From the NCBI GenBank assembly GCA_963796055.1, contig CAWCKH010000001.1, positions 285,642-349,641 on the forward strand: a stretch of DNA of 64,000 nucleotides, given 5' to 3'. This stretch comes from an uncultured delta proteobacterium. Its GTDB lineage: Bacteria > Myxococcota > Myxococcia > Myxococcales > Myxococcaceae. The position numbers were made by a program. Shown piece by piece: positions 18,101 through 42,100 of this stretch (position 1 is its first letter; each line of letters starts with the position of its first letter).

Positions 18101-21100
18101 ACGGTCGCCGCGCCGGTCAGCGCGAGACAGAGTCCACAGAGCAGCGGGCTCGCCCGGCGATACATCGGCGAGGCATCCTGCCGACTCGGCGGGCGTCAGG
18201 CGAGAAAACAGAGGACGGCCCGGGCATGCGACCGCGCCCCCGGACTCCGGCCCACAAGCGTGCGTGGCGTGCACCGCGCTCAGGGCGGGAGGGTGATCCT
18301 CCCGGGCGCGTTGCTGGTCCCGCTCTGGGTGTGGCAGCTGTTGCAGTCGCCGGTGGAGACGGCCGTCCCCATCGACCGCGTCTTCCCGTTGAAGGTCACC
18401 CGGGCGGTGATGGGGAAGGTGAGCTGGGCGGAGCCGTGGAAATTGCCGGACACGCTGCTGGCGGTGAACGTTGCCGTCACACCGTTCACGTCGGTGACCA
18501 TCACCACCGCCCCGCCGGCCGCGCTTCCGTTGCAGTCGTCCGGCTCGTGCCCGGTGGGGAAGACGGTCCCGCCGACGTTGAAGCTCGGGCCCCCCTGCTG
18601 TCTGTGGCAGACGATGCACGGGTGGCCCGGCTCCATGTCGGAGCTCCCTCGCGTCCCGCCGGTCCAGTGCGAGTTGCTGGTGCACACCGGCGCGGCGTCG
18701 AGGGGGTCCGGCGGTGGAGGAGGTCCGGCGTCCGGCGGCGGCGGTGGAACCCCACCGTCCGTGGCGCAGGTCCCCGCAGGCATGCCGGCATTGACCCAGG
18801 CCTGGAAGGCGGTGAGGTCCGCGGCGGGCACCGCGGCGTTCGGCGGCGGTGGCATCGGCGAGGTCGACGACTGCATCCGCACCACCGACCTCGCTCCATT
18901 GTTCTGCGATGGGTACCCGGGCGCGGCCGCGAGCAGCGCGGCGGGCGTGGCGAGGGACTGGGGGGCGCCACCGGCCGGAGTCGCCCCGTGGCAGCTCCAG
19001 CAATGCACGCTCAGCACGTCGTACGCCGCACAGGGGAACTCGGACGAGAGCACCACGCCGCCATCCGGTGCCGAGCCACCCGTCCCACCATCCTGACCCG
19101 GAGGGGTGCTTCCACCGTCTTGACCCGAGCCCGCGCCCGGAGCGCCGCCGCCCTGGGTGCCAGCGGGAACGCCACCGGTCGGCCCCGACCCCCCTCCGGG
19201 GGTGATGGTGCCGTCGCAGCCACCGAGCCCGGCGGCGAGCGTGACCGCGAAGAGGAGTCCCAGCGCACATCTGCTTCCGAGCGCGCGCGCACCCACCACA
19301 CCCTGTCGTCCGTGCACCGTCCTGCCTCCGCTCGCGCCGTTCGAGCAGACTCCCGCCCGTCCATTGCGTGCGCGGCTCGCTCTCCGTCACGGTCGACGGA
19401 CACAGCGACGGAAACGGCAGGTGCGAGGAACTGCGCTCTTCTGCGCACCTCGGCTCGCGCGAGGGCTAGTCTCGGGCTCGCCCACCAGGGAGGGCGCATG
19501 CGCCATTCGGTCCGATTTCCCTTCGCCGCGACGCTATTGCTGGTCGGCTGTCAGCATGACGCCGGGGTGACGCGGCTGGCAACCGCGCCGCCGAAGCCCG
19601 CGGGCTGCCAGCTCCAGCTCTTCGCCACTGAGGCCGAGGTGAACCGCCCGTTCGAGGCAGTGTGCCTCGTCGACACGGCCTTCCTCGCCACCATGCGCCG
19701 ACCGAGCAGCGTGGCGGAGGTTCCCGAGACCGCGCGCACGCAGGCCTGTCAGTGCGGAGGCGATGCACTGATCATCACCGGGCCCGCGGATGCAGGCGCC
19801 CCCGAGGGCAATGCCTCGGTGGTGAAGGTCATCCGGTTCACCGGCCCATGAGTCGTCGCCGTGGAGACCGCGCCTAGCGCGCCTGAACGACCCCGTCCAG
19901 ATGCGTGGAATGTCCGGACGCATCCACCTTGATCGCCCCGCCCGAGGTGACGGAATCCGGGTGACAGCCAGCGCACTGGGTGATGCTGGTCACGCCATCG
20001 TGGTGGTGCTTGCCAGGAATCTGCGTCGGAATCCCATGGCAGCTGCCACAGGCCGCCTGTCCCGGTCCGCCGTTCCACACCGGCCTTCGATTCACGCTGG
20101 CCGACGTGTCCTGTGACAGGCGCGCGCCCGAGCCGTGGCAGTACGCGGTGCAGGTCGCAGTGGTGGGGTCGTAGGAGGCCGTGGCGCCATCCGCCACCGC
20201 CAGCGTCCCCGCCCCCGGCGGGAAGACCTCCGCGGGCGGACCGGTGTCGATGTGACCCGGGCTGTCGAGCTGCGTGGGCACGTGGTGGCACTCCCCGCAG
20301 GCCACCGGAGCGGAGACCTTGTGCAGCGCGCTCAGGTGATCGCGGTGGGCTCCCACGGTCTGGAGCGCAGGGTCCGACCGGCCGAGCAGATCCACCGGGG
20401 GCGCCGGGCTGTCGCCGCTCCCATGGCAGCCCACGCAGCTCCCGGGCGGTGCGGCCACGTCGATCTGCCCGTTGGCATGCAGCACGGAGCGTGGTTCCCC
20501 GTCGATGAAGGTGCCGTGGTGGCAGGCTTCGCAGCGCGGATACGGTGAATGCCCCGCCGGAGGATAGCCGTGACAGCTGCCGCAAGGCGCCTGATCCTGC
20601 CCCACCTTGGTCCAGACCGGATTGATCAGGTTGGCATTGGCGTCCTCGAAGGGGGCATGGCAGTAGCTGTTGGTGCAGCTGGCGGCCGTCCGGTCCCAGG
20701 AGAAGGTGCCCGCGAAGCCGCTCTTGCTGATCACCGGTGCTGGCCCGGTGAGGAGCCTGCCTCCCGACTGATAGTGGCCCTCGTCTCCGGGCTTGGTGGG
20801 GGTCTTGTGACACACCTCGCAGGAGAAGCCGGTGTGCAGCGGGCCGTCCATGACGTGCGACTGATGCGCACCCACCGTCACCAGCGAGGTGGCGGAGTTG
20901 TAGTCCAGGTTCCTGGGGGGAGCCGCGTTCGCCTCGCTGCCATGGCAGGTGTTGCACGCCATCACTCCGGAGGCGTGGCAACTCTGGCAGGCGACGCCGG
21001 CGCTGCCCCCGCTCAGGTCCTCCCCGTGGCATGCCTGGCAGCTGCTCAGGTCGTAAACGGCCTGTCGCAGCACGCGACCGTGGAACTGGTCCGTGTTTCC

Positions 21101-39100: not shown

Positions 39101-42100
39101 ACGCCAACAACCTCAAGATGGCCGACACCTGCGGGGCCTGCCACGAGGAGGCCAGCCGTACCTACCGCGAGAGCTTCCACGGCAAAGCGACTCGGCTCGG
39201 CCAGGCCGCCGCCGCGACCTGTGCGGACTGCCACACCCCACACCACATGCTGCCCGCGACCGATCCGCAGTCGACCGTCCAGCCAGCGAACCTGGCCGCG
39301 ACCTGCGGCCGCTGCCACCCGGGCGCGAGCGGCGAGTTCCTCAAGTTCGACGTCCACGCCAACCCGGACAGCAAGGCGCGCAACGCCAAGGTGTACTGGA
39401 TCTACAAGTTCATGAGCCTGCTCCTCTTCGGGGTCATGGGCTTCTTCGCTGTGCACGCGGTCCTGTGGCTGCAGCGCGCCCTCGTCGCGGCGTGGCGCCA
39501 CGAGCTGCCCAACGGCGAGAAGCCGGGCGAGCCGTGGGTGCGCCGCTTCCGGCCGATCCACATCGGCATCCACGTCGCCATCGTGCTGACCTTCCTCACT
39601 CTCGGCGCCACCGGCCTGCCGCTCAAGTTCAGCGGCCAGGCCTGGGCCCGGCCGATCGAGAGCCTGTTCGGTGGACCGGGGGCGAACCAGCTCCTGCACC
39701 GCATTGCCGGCGTCCTGACGTTCGGCTACGCCGCGGTCTACGTCGCCTACCTGCTCTACGAGGCGCTGGTGAAGCGCACCAAGGGCCTGTTCTGGGGCTG
39801 GGAGTCGATGACGCCCCGGTGGAAGGACCTTCAGGACCTGTGGGCCAACGTCAAGTGGTTCTGCTACCGGGGCAAGCCGCCGCACCTCGACCGCTGGGCT
39901 TACTGGGAGAAGTTCGACTTCTTCGCGGTCTTCTGGGGCATCCCGATGATCGGCCTCTCGGGCCTGATGCTGTGGGCGCCGATGTGGTTCACGAAGTTCC
40001 TGCCCGGCTGGGCGCTCAACGTGGCCTATGTCATCCACAGCGACGAGGCGCTGCTCGCGACCGGCTTCATCTTCTTCTTCCACTTCTTCCACACCCACCT
40101 GCGTCCCGAGGCATTCCCGATGGACACGGTCATGTTCCTCGGCGGCATGCCGCTGTCGCGCTTCCAGCACGAGCGGCCCGACGAGTACGCGCGCGCGGTT
40201 GCGGACGGCACACTCGACAAGCTGCTCATGCCGCCGCCCAGCGAGCACGAGCGCCGGCGCGCGAACATCTTCGGCGCGGTGACGCTGGCCATCGGGGTGA
40301 TCCTTGCCTTCCTGCTCCTCGTGACCGGAATTAGCGCCCTCTGATGGAGGCCCCGCAAAGTGGCCCTCCCCGGACTCGAACCGGGACGCGGGGTCAGCCG
40401 CAGCGGATTTTGAGTCCGCCTCGTCTACCAATTTCGACAGAGGGCCTTGCGACGGCGCGGGCGCGGGTCTAGCACCTCCCGGGCCATGTACAACCTCCTC
40501 ATCGCGCTCGCCGCGGGGGTCGTCGTCACCGTTGCGGTGCAGCTGGCCGGCCTCCCGTTGCTCGCGGGAATCGTGCCCGGGGTGCTGGTCTTCTTCGGGG
40601 CTTACATCCTCCTCGCCCGGCGCATCGCCGAGCGGCTGAAGGCCCTGGTGGCCTCGGCGCAGAAGGAGCTGCAGACCATCTCCTCCCCCCGTGACCGGGA
40701 CGCCAAGGTGGCCAAGGCGGTGAAGACGCTGGAGCAGGGGCTGCAGTACGACCGGTGGCAGATCATGGTCGCCTCCCAGGTCCACGGGCAGATCGGCATC
40801 CTCCACTACATGATGAAGGACTACGCCGCCGCCGAGCCCCACCTGGTCGCGGCGAGCAAGCGCGACCCGATGTCCCAGGCCATGCTCGGGGCGCTGCACT
40901 ACCAGCGCAAGCAGACCGGGCCGATGACCGAGGCCTTCGAGCGCGCGGTGAAGGCCGGCAAGAAGGAAGGGCTGGTCTGGGCCGTCTACGCCTGGTGCCT
41001 TCAACAGACGAAGGAGCGCGACAAGGCCATCGCCGTCCTCGGTCGGGCGGTGGCCGCGAACCCCAGCGACGAGAAGCTCAAGTCCGCGCTCACCGCTCTG
41101 CAGAACGACAAGCGGATGAAGATGAAGGCCTGGGAGCCGATGTGGTGGCAGTTCAATCTGGAGGTTCCCCCCCAGGACCTCGGTGGCGGCCGGCGGGTTC
41201 AGTTCCAGCGTCGATGAGCAGGAGGGCTGGAGTTTCTTCCTGTCGTTTTCCAGCATACTCCTCAACCCGCTGAACTGACTGGGGCGGCGGGGGCACGTCG
41301 CTTGCTGCACGGTCAGCGCGCTTCCGTGCTTCGCGGGAGCCACGCCGCAGAAGAGGAGCGCCACCCCTGTCCGTCCGCGGACTTCAATCTCCGTCGTCGG
41401 ACTCCAGGCGGCCCGCGATGGATCGACGCCCTGCCCGCCCCGTGCTCCTCATCGTCGAGGACGACGGGCCGACCCGCGCCGGGCTGGCGGAGCTGCTCGG
41501 GGGTGACTGGGACATTCTCACTGCCGAGGACGGCACCGAGGCGGTCGCCCTCATCCAGGCCCACGTCCCGGACCTCGTCCTGGCAGACCTGGCCATGCCC
41601 CGGCTCGGTGGGATCGGCCTGCTCGAGGTGCTCCGGTCGGACCCGCGGACCCGCGAGGTGCCGGTGGTGTTCCTCTCCGGGCAGAGCGACGCGAGCACCA
41701 TCGTGAACTGCTTCAGCCACGGCGCGGCGGACTTCATCGCCAAGCCCGGCCGCCCGGACGAGCTCCGCGCCCGGCTCCTCCATGCCTGGACACAGGCCCG
41801 GCGGGTGGCGAGCCTGGAGTCCCTGGCCCGCACCGACGCCCTCACCGGCCTGCACAACTTCCGGGCGCTGCAGCAGAGGCTGGACGAGGAGTTCGCCCGG
41901 GCCGCCCGCTACGCCGAGCCGCTCGCGGTCCTGCTGGTCGACCTGGACCACCTCAAGATGCTCAACGACCGGTACGGCCACGAGGCGGGGAACGCCGCGC
42001 TCCGGGCCATGGGCGAGGTGTTCGGCGAGGAGCTGCGCGAGGTGGACTTCGCCGCGCGCTTCGGGGGCGACGAGTTCGTGGCGCTGCTGCCGCACCAGAC

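Follow-up and report, generated by a model that had tools for sequence, protein, structure and literature searches.

The island described here probably encodes a complete route by which electrons of the quinol pool reach the cell surface in outward extracellular electron transfer, and combines modules known from Shewanella on the one hand and Geobacter on the other. In the proposed route the periplasm would be fed by three candidate quinol oxidases of the inner membrane (g312, g313 and the pair g309-g308), the membrane-anchored nonahaem cytochrome g307 replacing cytochrome c1 in the Rieske/cytochrome b complex. The cytochromes g304, g305 and g306 would then ferry the electrons as soluble carriers, and the outer membrane would be crossed by the 13-haem cytochrome g301 threaded through the 22-strand barrel g302. 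On the far side, the lipoproteins g303 (MtrC fold), g310 (OmcA/MtrC family) and g300 (11 haems) would take over the electrons. The acceptors would most likely be insoluble or macromolecular, for example humic matter or minerals of Fe(III)/Mn(IV). Metal or electrode respiration in this lineage, the boldest reading of the first-pass annotation, is not demonstrable from sequence.

Gene content of the island

The window, i.e., the whole stretch of DNA that was analysed, comprises 64,000 nt of contig CAWCKH010000001.1 (assembly GCA_963796055.1, contig positions 285,642-349,641), and all coordinates count along it. The host is an uncultured soil myxobacterium (delta proteobacterium; Myxococcota, Myxococcaceae). 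The 22-kb island (Table 1) holds nearly all large multihaem cytochromes of the genome. A genome-wide frame scan found only 14 open frames with at least four CxxCH motifs, and all six frames with at least nine lie inside the island. The 14 genes and every CxxCH count of the first-pass annotation were reproduced exactly, and its Pfam/NCBIfam assignments were obtained again (PF22113 in g303 and g310, Cytochrom_NNT in g312, Cytochrome_B in g308, Rieske in g309). Several frames had been called too long at their start; the likely starts are 22569 (g301), 23849 (g302), 29493 (g307), 30895 (g308) and 38122 (g313). The GC content of the island, also reported previously as low, is 0.668 compared with 0.709 in the remaining window, single genes ranging from 0.606 to 0.712 (0.61-0.68 in the earlier account). 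The cytochrome c552 locus, the NiFe hydrogenase and NosZ named as genome context were all located.

A frame downstream of g300 possibly represents an extra member of the island. It has a lipoprotein-like N-terminus and a weak Cytochrom_C match (E 8e-5), and shows 77% identity over 346 aa to a frame downstream of g300 in the related locus L024; the choice of frame in high-GC DNA is uncertain.

Table 1. Genes and other features of the island, in window coordinates.
Feature	Position	Strand	CxxCH motifs	Description	Basis
Extra frame	18280..19317	-	3	Possible extra member, 345 codons, downstream of g300	Lipobox, CxxCH motifs
g300	19874..21520	-	11 (+1 CxxxxCH)	Lipoprotein cytochrome, 548 aa	TIGR01904 71 bits, lipobox
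g301	21508..22569	-	13	Periplasmic cytochrome, 353 aa	Signal peptide, haem motifs
g302	22566..23849	-	0	Haem-free outer-membrane beta-barrel, 427 aa	Signal peptide, AF2 fold
g303, body	23900..26305	-	10	MtrC-fold decahaem cytochrome, haems 5+5	PF22113, AF2/Foldseek
g303, N-terminus	26306..26480	-		Lipoprotein signal peptide and collagen-like Gly-X-Y linker, other frame	
g304, g305, g306	26699..27870	+	1 each	Three tandem monohaem class I cytochromes c	Signal peptides
g307	27922..29493	-	9	Nonahaem cytochrome c, 523 aa, C-terminal membrane anchor	Hydrophobic segment 489-507
g308	29582..30895	-		Cytochrome b	b6-like N-terminal part fused to subunit-IV-like C-terminal part
g309	30892..31356	-		Rieske iron-sulfur subunit	PF00355 47 bits
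g310	31798..34806	+	10	OmcA/MtrC-family decahaem lipoprotein, 1002 aa	TIGR03507, PF22113, lipobox, collagen-like linker
g311	34979..36637	+	0	Polytopic membrane protein, N-terminal coiled coil, DUF2339-like	Hydropathy
g312	36680..38101	+	5 (+1 CxxxCH)	ImcH-type inner-membrane cytochrome	3 TM helices, haem motifs
g313	38122..40344	+	12	CbcL/MtrH/MtoC-type fusion, c-type haem motifs and C-terminal membrane domain	

The barrel g302 and its probable cytochrome partner g301

The AF2 model of g302 comprises 22 strands (pLDDT 80), and a plug domain is absent from the modelled protein. Foldseek and VIA matched it to usher pores, porins and the 22-strand barrels of TonB-dependent receptors (for 22-strand barrels VIA gave Z about 20 across some 340 residues), whereas profile searches of Pfam and NCBIfam gave no match. 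The porin role, previously a guess from place, size and signal peptide, is thus supported by a plug-less barrel model. The stop of g302 and the start of g301 overlap by 4 nt. The haem motifs of g301 are all invariant or nearly so among 21 sequences, and the most distant homologues found carry 12.

The complex of g302 (residues 32-427) and g301 (residues 27-353) was modelled as protein chains without haems. The ipSAE values, which express model confidence, were 0.82, 0.85 and 0.87 compared with 0.01 for the best of three controls, and passed a mark that 116 of 157 solved complexes and 2 of 215 mismatched pairs attained; as the structure of MtrCAB is solved, this pass may partly reflect likeness to MtrCAB. 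The runs shared at least 87% of contacts, with a partner pLDDT of at least 72. Residues all round the barrel (34-420 of g302) contact residues 148-351 of g301, which is predicted to sit inside it.

Gene order was compared in 21 distinct related loci which, being found via g302 and coming from kin, are not independent events. In all 20 loci that extend past g302, it is followed by g301 on the same strand with a gap of 0-141 nt. A g300-type gene adjoins the pair in 13 of these 20 and a g303- or g310-type gene lies within 9 kb of it in 16 of 21; g300 is tied to the pair about as often as g303. The pairing of a periplasmic cytochrome g301 with g302, as first annotated, is supported by the complex model (0.85 against 0.01) and this synteny.

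The barrel could alternatively be an ordinary substrate channel. In that case the cytochromes would reduce an acceptor in solution or in the periplasm (selenite/tellurite, oxyanions of nitrogen or sulfur, small quinones), and no electrons would cross the outer membrane via g301. The porin-like ExtI of Geobacter is tied to selenite/tellurite reduction and suggested to act in uptake in the available part of PMC5877670, g308 obtains 191 bits with the ExtP model NF040969 (cut-off 290), and the porin fold match of g302 shows no function. Nevertheless, such a channel is unlikely, since a plug-less 22-strand barrel greatly exceeds the width required of a solute porin, the complex model sets g301 against residues all round it, and the two overlapping genes are strictly coupled in 20 of 20 loci. 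Moreover, three lipoprotein cytochromes flank the pair, two of them of the MtrC/OmcA kind. The previously proposed conduit g301/g302/g303 is favoured by the barrel, the complex model, the synteny and the MtrC fold; the annotation of g311 as secreted and the strength of the novelty claim did not hold.

Among the 208 genomes of the family, 68 encode a barrel of the g302 type, and these span 19 of its 51 genera. PF22113 lies within 5 kb of the barrel on the same contig in at least 44 of the 68, a floor counted by hand among the 150 of 718 PF22113 matches listed. With 108 of 208 family genomes above the cut-off (one unpublished genome, G158, is among the 208 scanned), this domain family is commoner than the 63 of 207 given before as a floor.

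Proposed outer lipoprotein cytochromes

The g303 protein scores 98 bits with PF22113 and 137.6 bits with TIGR03507, under the cut-off of 209. With its AF2 model (pLDDT 79), the best 16 Foldseek matches were all MtrC, UndA, MtrF or OmcA (E 4e-14 to 4e-4), the next match having E 2e-3. The 801-codon frame is without a signal peptide, and the lipoprotein signal lies upstream in another frame of this assembly. The earlier description as a decahaem outer cytochrome is strengthened by the MtrC fold and qualified by a signal out of frame with the body. Signal and body share one frame in all four same-genus relatives checked. One base, at 26336, is missing from a short-read soil contig (run X3, depth about 3, possibly from the window's own sample or from a related strain), which restores the frame. 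The nrfA gene is likewise divided over two frames, an indication that the assembly contains indel errors.

This frameshift, the low GC content and a DDE transposase at the contig end would also fit a decaying or recently imported remnant that does not work in this strain. We regard this as very improbable: the remaining 13 genes have uninterrupted frames and intact haem motifs, the extra g303 base is missing from the short-read contig, the split nrfA indicates assembly errors, and the island genes are kept at 65-89% identity in same-genus genomes.

A working set of outer cytochromes, the preferred reading, includes g310, which reaches 419 bits with TIGR03507 (OmcA/MtrC; cut-off 209), contains PF22113 in three stretches (167 bits) as well as OmcA-like_N, and matched MtrF (5.6e-14) and MtrC (6qyc, 6r2q_C) in a phmmer search of the PDB. 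The lipobox is present in 12 of 12 g300 homologues and 11 CxxCH motifs in 11 of 12; g300 is a candidate OmcB-like outer partner. We infer that these lipoproteins are exposed at the surface and that g301 docks with one of them.

Inner-membrane and periplasmic components

The proteins g304, g305 and g306 are likely soluble periplasmic carriers, and one to three copies of this type are kept beside the cluster in relatives. The g307 gene comes after the cytochrome b gene g308 on the same strand, in the usual place of cytochrome c1. The g308 protein matches PF00033 (164 bits) and PF00032 (38 bits), and the stop of g309 overlaps the start of g308 by 4 nt. Another Rieske/cytochrome b locus lies about 3 kb from nosZ, so that g309-g308 need not be the general complex III.

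The g312 protein matches Cytochrom_NNT (PF03264) with 31.9 bits. The C-terminal membrane domain of g313 is of the b-type cytochrome kind (Atlas lead PF01292, score 0.89); residues 415-740 have 3983 homologues, many of which have PF01292 or bear the name of the cytochrome b subunit of formate dehydrogenase. This makes g313 a candidate quinol oxidase, a CbcL-type cytochrome c/b fusion, which the first-pass annotation had missed together with the linkage of g300. Instead of being secreted, g311 is a polytopic integral membrane protein with about 12-14 hydrophobic helices according to hydropathy. As a lead only, 29 of its 30 nearest Atlas clusters belong to the DUF2339 set (score 0.96); Pfam PF10101 gave E 3.2 only. 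Paralogues of g311 adjoin g312-type genes in relatives.

The genome also encodes three haem-copper oxidases, NrfA and NosZ, so the island cytochromes could serve other chains. Electrons might even flow inward: Fe(II), reduced minerals or humics would donate them at the surface, the monohaem cytochromes c would pass them on, and the haem-copper oxidases or NosZ would receive them, with the Rieske/cytochrome b pair and the CbcL-type protein running in reverse. CbcL/MtrH/MtoC homologues occur in Fe(II) oxidisers and Fe(III) reducers alike (PMC6295460, available part), so that they do not fix the direction. The island itself contains typical oxidase donors, namely class I monohaem cytochromes c together with a bc complex, and the genome offers oxidases and NosZ as acceptors. 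Inward flow is still unlikely, as the known role of OmcA/MtrC-family surface cytochromes is that of terminal reductases. Genes of the Cyc2 or MtoAB type were not seen, though no search was aimed at them. Moreover, ImcH homologues were reported so far from Fe(III) reducers only, according to the available part of PMC6295460.

Comparison with known systems

The extHIJKLMNOPQS cluster of Geobacter, as far as described in the available part of PMC5877670, resembles the island in its porin-like protein, multihaem and lipoprotein cytochromes and Rieske/cytochrome b pair (ExtO/ExtP). However, g308 is a longer, fused cytochrome b scoring below the ExtP cut-off, the island showed neither a rhodanese (ExtH) nor a selenocysteine cytochrome, and the MtrC-type proteins of the island are absent from the cluster as described there.

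Comparison with the published features of ImcH and CbcL (PMC6295460, available part) revealed three N-terminal TM helices, a neighbouring CxxxCH and five CxxCH in g312. In g313, the N-terminal half carries 12 CxxCH, and the C-terminal membrane domain has several helices and PF01292-bearing relatives. Unlike Geobacter ImcH and CbcL, g312 and g313 are adjacent, beside a DUF2339-like membrane protein. Shi's survey, in the same part, found no mtrAB or mtoAB adjoining imcH, whereas 11 of our 21 loci have a g312 (imcH)-type gene at most 9 kb from the barrel-cytochrome pair.

Peat Acidobacteriota and Verrucomicrobiota, likewise uncultured soil bacteria, have syntenic clusters that combine porins of the outer membrane with cytochromes resembling MtrC and MtrA (8-13 haems), and their sequences diverge from model systems (bioRxiv 10.64898/2026.05.27.727921). 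This likeness is one of description and concerns other phyla, Myxococcota having 0 occurrences in the main text of that preprint.

The island shares with MtrCAB of Shewanella (PDB 6R2Q) the principle of a barrel-threaded cytochrome capped by a surface decahaem protein. By the curated NCBIfam cut-off g310 is a member of the OmcA/MtrC/MtrF/UndA family, and g303 shares its fold and 5+5 haem layout; both are lipoproteins. The collagen-like Gly-X-Y linker after the lipid-anchor cysteine of g303 and g310 is unlike the MtrC/OmcA family. The barrel with 22 strands and its 13-haem partner differ from MtrAB, MtrB being a much larger protein with 28 predicted strands (Shi et al., available part). An MtrAB identity of g302 and g301 was rejected: the MtrB_PioB barrel family had no match in the 98.5%-complete genome, and g301, which resembles ActA and c7, matches MtrA with E 0.02 only.

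Instead, g302-g301 is probably a module of porin and cytochrome like the Pcc of Geobacter and Anaeromyxobacter. According to the available part of PMC4245776, Pcc clusters include ombB-omaB-omcB of Geobacter and a two-gene type in Anaeromyxobacter (Adeh_3392 and a porin-like neighbour), whose periplasmic cytochrome, with 12 haems and 338-344 aa, is close to g301 in both respects. By description, the island order of barrel, 13-haem cytochrome and conserved 11-haem lipoprotein g300 gives the gene order of Geobacter Pcc. The same source reports that Anaeromyxobacter, of the same order as the host, reduces metals, and a preprint of 2022 had recorded MtrC, ExtABC and CbcL from MAGs of Myxococcota. 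Both weaken the novelty first claimed, and the preprint confirms the accompanying caveat that others may have noted such genes. The Anaeromyxobacter clusters, however, are described in PMC4245776 without any outer cytochrome gene, whereas MtrC/OmcA-family cytochromes are linked to the barrel here, with g303 directly upstream and the order g310-g302-g301 in loci L028 and L029. This linkage of predicted surface cytochromes of the MtrC family to a Pcc-like barrel is what is new in an island otherwise of a known type.

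Organisation of the multihaem-cytochrome island

The island g300-g313 is real, conserved and well organised, and constitutes a predicted electron conduit. When scanned in six frames with a GC3 filter, the region 19874-40344 of the window again yielded all 14 genes of the first-pass annotation together with every haem-motif count, and Pfam and NCBIfam searches returned the same family assignments. The GC content of single genes ranges from 0.606 to 0.712, and the island mean is 0.668 as against 0.709 in the remaining window. In the genome (5.53 Mb, 7 contigs), 14 stop-to-stop frames contain at least four CxxCH motifs, seven of them inside the island, and all six frames with nine or more CxxCH motifs found by the whole-genome scan lie there, so that the large multihaem cytochromes of the organism are concentrated in this region. 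For several long ORFs a better start, associated with a signal peptide, was located further downstream (see the table). The first-pass annotation had also guessed that g301, g302 and g303 form a conduit across the outer membrane; four of its genes were corrected, and the guess itself was strengthened by a barrel model, a complex model and synteny.

Besides the island, the genome encodes three haem-copper oxidases, NrfA, NosZ and NiFe hydrogenases; the cytochrome c552, N2O reductase and NiFe hydrogenases reported earlier were thus located. The frame downstream of g300 may place the left edge of the island further out than previously set. The frames beyond it are conserved in relatives, and a transposase gene lies close to the window end.

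Refined starts and coordinates of features in the window and on contig C4 of the same genome
Feature	Position (strand)	Remarks
g300, most likely start	21520	lipobox present
g301, start	22569	353 aa; 4-nt overlap with g302 stop
g302, start	23849	427 aa
g307, start	29493	
g308, start	30895	4-nt overlap with g309 stop
g313, start	38122	
N-terminal region with lipoprotein signal and collagen-like linker, g303	26306-26480 (-)	
N-terminal region with collagen-like linker, g310	31798-31930 (+)	
Three tandem monohaem cytochrome c paralogues	26699-27870 (+)	cross-matches 61-87% in relatives
345-codon frame downstream of g300	18280-19317 (-)	lipobox; three CxxCH; 77% identity in L024
Conserved frames	15017-18165	no Pfam family
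DDE transposase	62476-63957 (-)	PF01609, DUF772; window end is end of contig C1
Cytochrome c552 (NrfA) match	G000:C4:980972-982181 (-)	split over two frames abutting at 981255-981259
Second cytochrome b gene, adjoining 5-CxxCH frame and nosZ	G000:C4:1717639-1721505 (-)	all three within 4 kb; nosZ ~3 kb from cytochrome b

A predicted 22-strand barrel and its 13-haem cytochrome

No long hydrophobic helix is present in the g302 protein, which has a signal peptide. It matched no family in Pfam or NCBIfam, and all of its homologues (97/97) are unnamed or "hypothetical" and without a Pfam domain. The AlphaFold2 model of g302, built on a 44-row alignment (mean pLDDT 80), forms a barrel of 22 beta strands, in line with the porin role guessed for it before. 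Foldseek searches with this model revealed usher translocation pores and porins as the best PDB matches, and a second structure aligner (VIA) matched it with Z ~20 over ~340 residues to 22-strand TonB-dependent receptor barrels, in their barrel parts only; as modelled, the 427 residues of g302 leave no space for a plug domain. MtrB (6R2Q chain B) was absent among the Foldseek and VIA matches listed. The MtrB/PioB-family barrel (PF11854) gave no match in the own genome, which is 98.5% complete; the MtrC-type proteins described below therefore lack their canonical partner, a role for which the linked pair g302-g301 is the candidate.

The homologues of g301 comprise 346-375 aa with 12 or 13 CxxCH motifs, and the haem motifs are all invariant or nearly so among 21 sequences. 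The g301 profile resembles the pentahaem protein ActA from alternative complex III (E 5e-13) as well as cytochrome c7 repeats, and is only weakly similar (E 0.02, 17 bits) to 6r2q_A, which we take to be MtrA, its molecule label in the match table being different. The 13 haems of g301 compare with 10 in the MtrA-type decahaem cytochrome. Among 653 homologue matches, the 120 listed are all at least 46% identical and are assigned to Myxococcaceae, Myxococcales, Myxococcota and Polyangia, with one Thermoanaerobaculaceae label. In the distant relatives L016, L018, L019 and L021 the g301 homologue has a lipobox-like cysteine after the signal sequence, so this partner may be lipid-anchored there; the g301-type cytochromes of L018, L019 and L020 contain 12 haem motifs instead of 13.

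Modelling of the mature g302 and g301 proteins as a complex, with alignments built for this analysis, gave ipSAE values of 0.82, 0.85 and 0.87, compared with 0.01 for the best of three controls; these values express model confidence for haem-free chains, with MtrCAB as the solved likeness, and of 157 solved complexes 116 reach the ipSAE mark applied, as do 2 of 215 mismatched pairs. At least 87% of contacts were shared between runs, with a partner pLDDT of at least 72. Contacts were predicted between strands all round the g302 barrel (residues 34-420) and residues 148-351 of g301, a pattern which fits a location of the modelled g301 inside the barrel lumen.

Predicted lipoprotein cytochromes, two of them of the MtrC/OmcA type

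The assignment of g310 as an OmcA/MtrC decahaem cytochrome was borne out: it passes TIGR03507 (419.2 vs 209.3 bits; residues 76-1000 on model positions 2-672), contains 10 CxxCH motifs and matches the MtrF and MtrC chains in the PDB. By eye, its N-terminal hydrophobic region ends in Cys23, as in a lipoprotein signal. The g303 protein stays below the curated TIGR03507 cut-off (137.6 vs 209.3 bits), and its single-sequence search of the PDB gave no match at E 0.01. The MtrC/MtrF domain II/IV (PF22113) was detected in it with 98.3 bits against a cut-off of 30, and its ten haem motifs are placed 5+5. The AlphaFold2 model of g303 (pLDDT 79, 35-row alignment) retrieved only MtrC, UndA, MtrF and OmcA structures as its top 16 Foldseek matches in the PDB, with E-values from 4e-14 to 4e-4 and TM scores (target) of 0.39-0.57, followed after a gap by unrelated Ig-like domains (E 2e-3). 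The modelled g303 thus displays the four-domain MtrC fold, and this together with PF22113 upholds the MtrC-type domain assigned previously.

The 801-codon frame of g303 is devoid of a signal peptide, and a lipoprotein signal with a collagen-like Gly-X-Y stretch lies upstream in another frame (start 26480). Signal, linker and body share one frame in all four same-genus genomes (4/4). Four soil-metagenome runs (X1-X4) were searched with the region 26100-26600; the site was covered by one contig only, from X3, contigs of X1 and X2 missed it and X4 yielded none. No RNA run was among the sequencing runs listed. This X3 contig (198 nt, depth ~3) is identical to the window save for one letter absent at 26336, within a CC dinucleotide beside a G5 run on the + strand, which restores the frame. 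The break may be a genuine strain-specific frameshift, and the X3 evidence consists of a single contig of low depth that may stem from the sample of the window itself; since that contig lacks the extra base and the nrfA match on contig C4 also lies in two frames, an apparent second frameshift of the assembly, we regard the break in g303 as probably an assembly indel error. Adjoining nrfA is a 4-haem frame that probably encodes NrfH. An apparent g303-g302 fusion in the related loci L024 and L035 was rejected as an ORF-extension artefact, with a stop codon in L024 and a frame change in L035 near the g303 end.

In both MtrC-type lipoproteins, 6-7 proline-rich collagen-like Gly-X-Y triplets directly follow the lipid-anchor cysteine. 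The linker is present in 9 of 10 g303 homologues (L013, L014, L015, L022, L024, L032, L033, L035 and L037) and, judged from its sequence, may act as a stiff or trimerising tether keeping the cytochrome away from the membrane. A further lipoprotein cytochrome, g300, carries a lipobox, 11 CxxCH motifs and one CxxxxCH; all 12 homologues in related loci have the lipobox and 11 of them 11 CxxCH motifs. Its single-sequence search of the PDB matched OmcA only (E 0.0022).

Inner-membrane and carrier modules

ImcH homologues are described in the passages available of Shi and colleagues (PMC6295460) as having three N-terminal transmembrane helices, an adjoining CxxxCH, 5-9 CxxCH motifs and a NapC/NirT-like stretch. 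All these published features were found in g312, confirming its ImcH-like annotation: hydrophobic segments at 26-44, 51-75 and 107-125, a CxxxCH at ~139 directly after the helices, five CxxCH motifs and a NapC/NirT-like stretch (PF03264, 31.9 vs 24.1 bits). CbcL/MtrH/MtoC proteins, by the same passages, have an N-terminal half containing 3-23 CxxCH motifs and a C-terminal half with about six transmembrane helices, and this is the layout predicted for g313. The 12 haems annotated for g313 were recovered (12 CxxCH at residues 81-395), but it is not a plain 12-haem protein, having a C-terminal membrane domain (~420-740); a crude hydropathy scan resolved 5-6 hydrophobic segments between 426 and 734. 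Residues 415-740 matched no Pfam family even at E 10. This domain has at least 3983 homologues, many of them fused to multihaem domains, and many carry PF01292 or the name "cytochrome b subunit of formate dehydrogenase"; such labelled proteins are 55-63% identical to g313 over 415-740, and PF01292 was also the atlas lead (score 0.89).

The Rieske-cytochrome b pair g309-g308 of the first-pass annotation stands, with all domains above the Pfam cut-offs (PF00355, 47.3 bits; PF00033, 164.3 bits; PF00032, 38.4 bits). The next gene, g307, encodes nine haems and a C-terminal anchor and thereby occupies the place of cytochrome c1. The second cytochrome b locus, on contig C4, may be a dedicated bc-type partner of N2O reduction; if so, g309-g308 would be left for the island. 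The gene g311 encodes a polytopic membrane protein that begins with a coiled coil, and a role as second porin was rejected in view of its helical, polytopic nature. It matched DUF2339 (PF10101) weakly (E 3.2; 6.8 vs a cut-off of 33.6 bits), and 29 of its 30 nearest atlas clusters belong to the DUF2339 set (score 0.96), a lead to a possibly DUF2339-like protein.

The monohaem cytochromes c (g304-g306) are tandem paralogues, present beside the cluster in one to three copies among relatives. In the same-genus genomes L013, L014 and L027 a g313 orthologue (81-83% identity) comes after g300 and is followed by more distant g312-type (45-48%) and g311-type (38-44%) genes; the inner-membrane module has been rearranged or swapped for paralogues within the genus.

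Conservation and distribution in the family

Synteny was assessed in 21 distinct related loci of the same genus, family and order. In all 20 loci that reach past g302, the next gene on that strand is g301, 0-141 nt away, and a g300-type gene adjoins the pair in 13 of these 20. Genes of the g303 or g310 type occur within 9 kb in 16/21 loci; in L028 and L029 one of the g310 type stands immediately before g302-g301. A g312-type gene is nearby in 11/21. Since the loci were found via g302 and are kin, these counts indicate conservation and not independent events. The contig L024 is titled Thermoanaerobaculaceae (Acidobacteriota) and contains the whole cluster in the same order with 72-89% protein identity; this reflects either mis-binning of the contig or a recent transfer.

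The g302 barrel profile was found (E<=1e-10) in 68 of the family's 208 genomes, spread over 19 of 51 genera, and in none of the genomes of genera g30 (0/18), g13 (0/21), g34 (0/8) and g40 (0/11), which contain most of its 9-14-Mb genomes. PF22113, which the first-pass annotation had called frequent in the family with a floor of 63/207 genomes, is frequent but commoner still, above cut-off in 108/208; both tallies include one unpublished genome, G158. PF22113 matches at E ~1e-4 in the large-genome genera were not scored as presence because a control search was also positive in E. coli and Bacteroides. By a hand count among the matches listed (150 of 718), PF22113 occurs no more than 5 kb from the barrel gene, on one contig with it, in at least 44 of the 68 barrel genomes. 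A scan of genome contigs with a narrow peptide pattern found 16 close MAG relatives, none of them Anaeromyxobacter, and cluster look-ups of distant g302 homologues gave organism labels that stop at "Myxococcaceae bacterium", with no Anaeromyxobacter.

Proposed electron transfer and its implications

In the proposed pathway, g312, g313 or the bc-type complex would oxidise quinol, and the electrons would pass to the periplasmic cytochromes g304-g306 and possibly to the end of g301 that faces the periplasm. Inside g302, the 13 g301 haems would carry them across the outer membrane to the surface lipoprotein cytochromes g303, g310 and/or g300. We infer the direction of flow, the acceptor and the surface exposure of the lipoproteins. 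As oxidases, NrfA, NosZ and NiFe hydrogenases are also encoded, the organism would be a facultative anaerobe and the island one respiratory branch among several.

A bolder reading, to which we give slightly less than an even chance, is that uncultured, mostly smaller-genome Myxococcaceae genera use an undescribed conduit without MtrAB: MtrC/OmcA surface cytochromes of the Shewanella type, held by collagen-like linkers, would dock on a 22-strand barrel similar to that of Geobacter, through which a 13-haem cytochrome is threaded. One third of the family's sequenced species (68/208 genomes, none in g30, g13, g34 or g40) would then be facultative respirers of minerals or humics in soils. The family Myxococcaceae is best known for aerobic predators. 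Should the conduit function as modelled, the terminal reductases of the MtrC family would not be tied to MtrAB and could attach to a smaller, unrelated pair of porin and cytochrome, a point of relevance to the evolution of extracellular respiration through module exchange. Anaerobic mineral or humic respiration would then reach beyond Anaeromyxobacter into numerous uncultured lineages of this family in soil, which would matter for how iron and carbon are cycled in wet soils. The idea is directly testable, and as the outer-membrane part is compact, with four genes (g303-g300), it is practical for heterologous expression and structural work.

Comparison with known porin-cytochrome systems

Baker et al. 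(2022) make no mention of Myxococcota in the main text. In the available part of a study of Desulfobacterota, mtrC occurs with mtrAB (PMC12133095). In the main texts and passages covered, MtrC-family genes tied to a Pcc-like barrel without MtrAB were not found, preprint supplements being a place where gene tables may stand; for Myxococcota, these sources contained only a passing list, one sentence of a 2022 boreal-lake preprint in which MtrC, ExtABC and CbcL are named for Myxococcota MAGs. Porin-cytochrome clusters of an analogous kind are described for Acidobacteriota and Verrucomicrobiota in the part available of a 2026 preprint (bioRxiv 10.64898/2026.05.27.727921).

Porin-cytochrome (Pcc) clusters, as characterised by Shi et al. 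(2014) in the passages available of PMC4245776, combine a barrel, an adjoining periplasmic cytochrome with 5-14 haems and, in most clusters, a gene for an adjoining outer-membrane lipoprotein cytochrome. The corresponding components here are the modelled barrel g302 (22 strands, 427 aa), g301 with 13 CxxCH motifs and a signal peptide, and g300, whose surface exposure is predicted; this likeness was judged on strand number, size, haem number and gene order. In size and haem number the g301 protein (353 aa, 13 haems) comes near the Pcc cytochrome of Anaeromyxobacter (12 haems, 338-344 aa), whose abundance, according to the same passages, is higher during Mn(IV) reduction than on Fe(III)-citrate. 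The combination of porin, cytochromes and Rieske/cytochrome b in one cluster already occurs in Geobacter extHIJKLMNOPQS, according to the passages available of PMC5877670. Finally, the order of barrel, cytochrome and lipoprotein genes in the island is that of Geobacter ombB-omaB-omcB.
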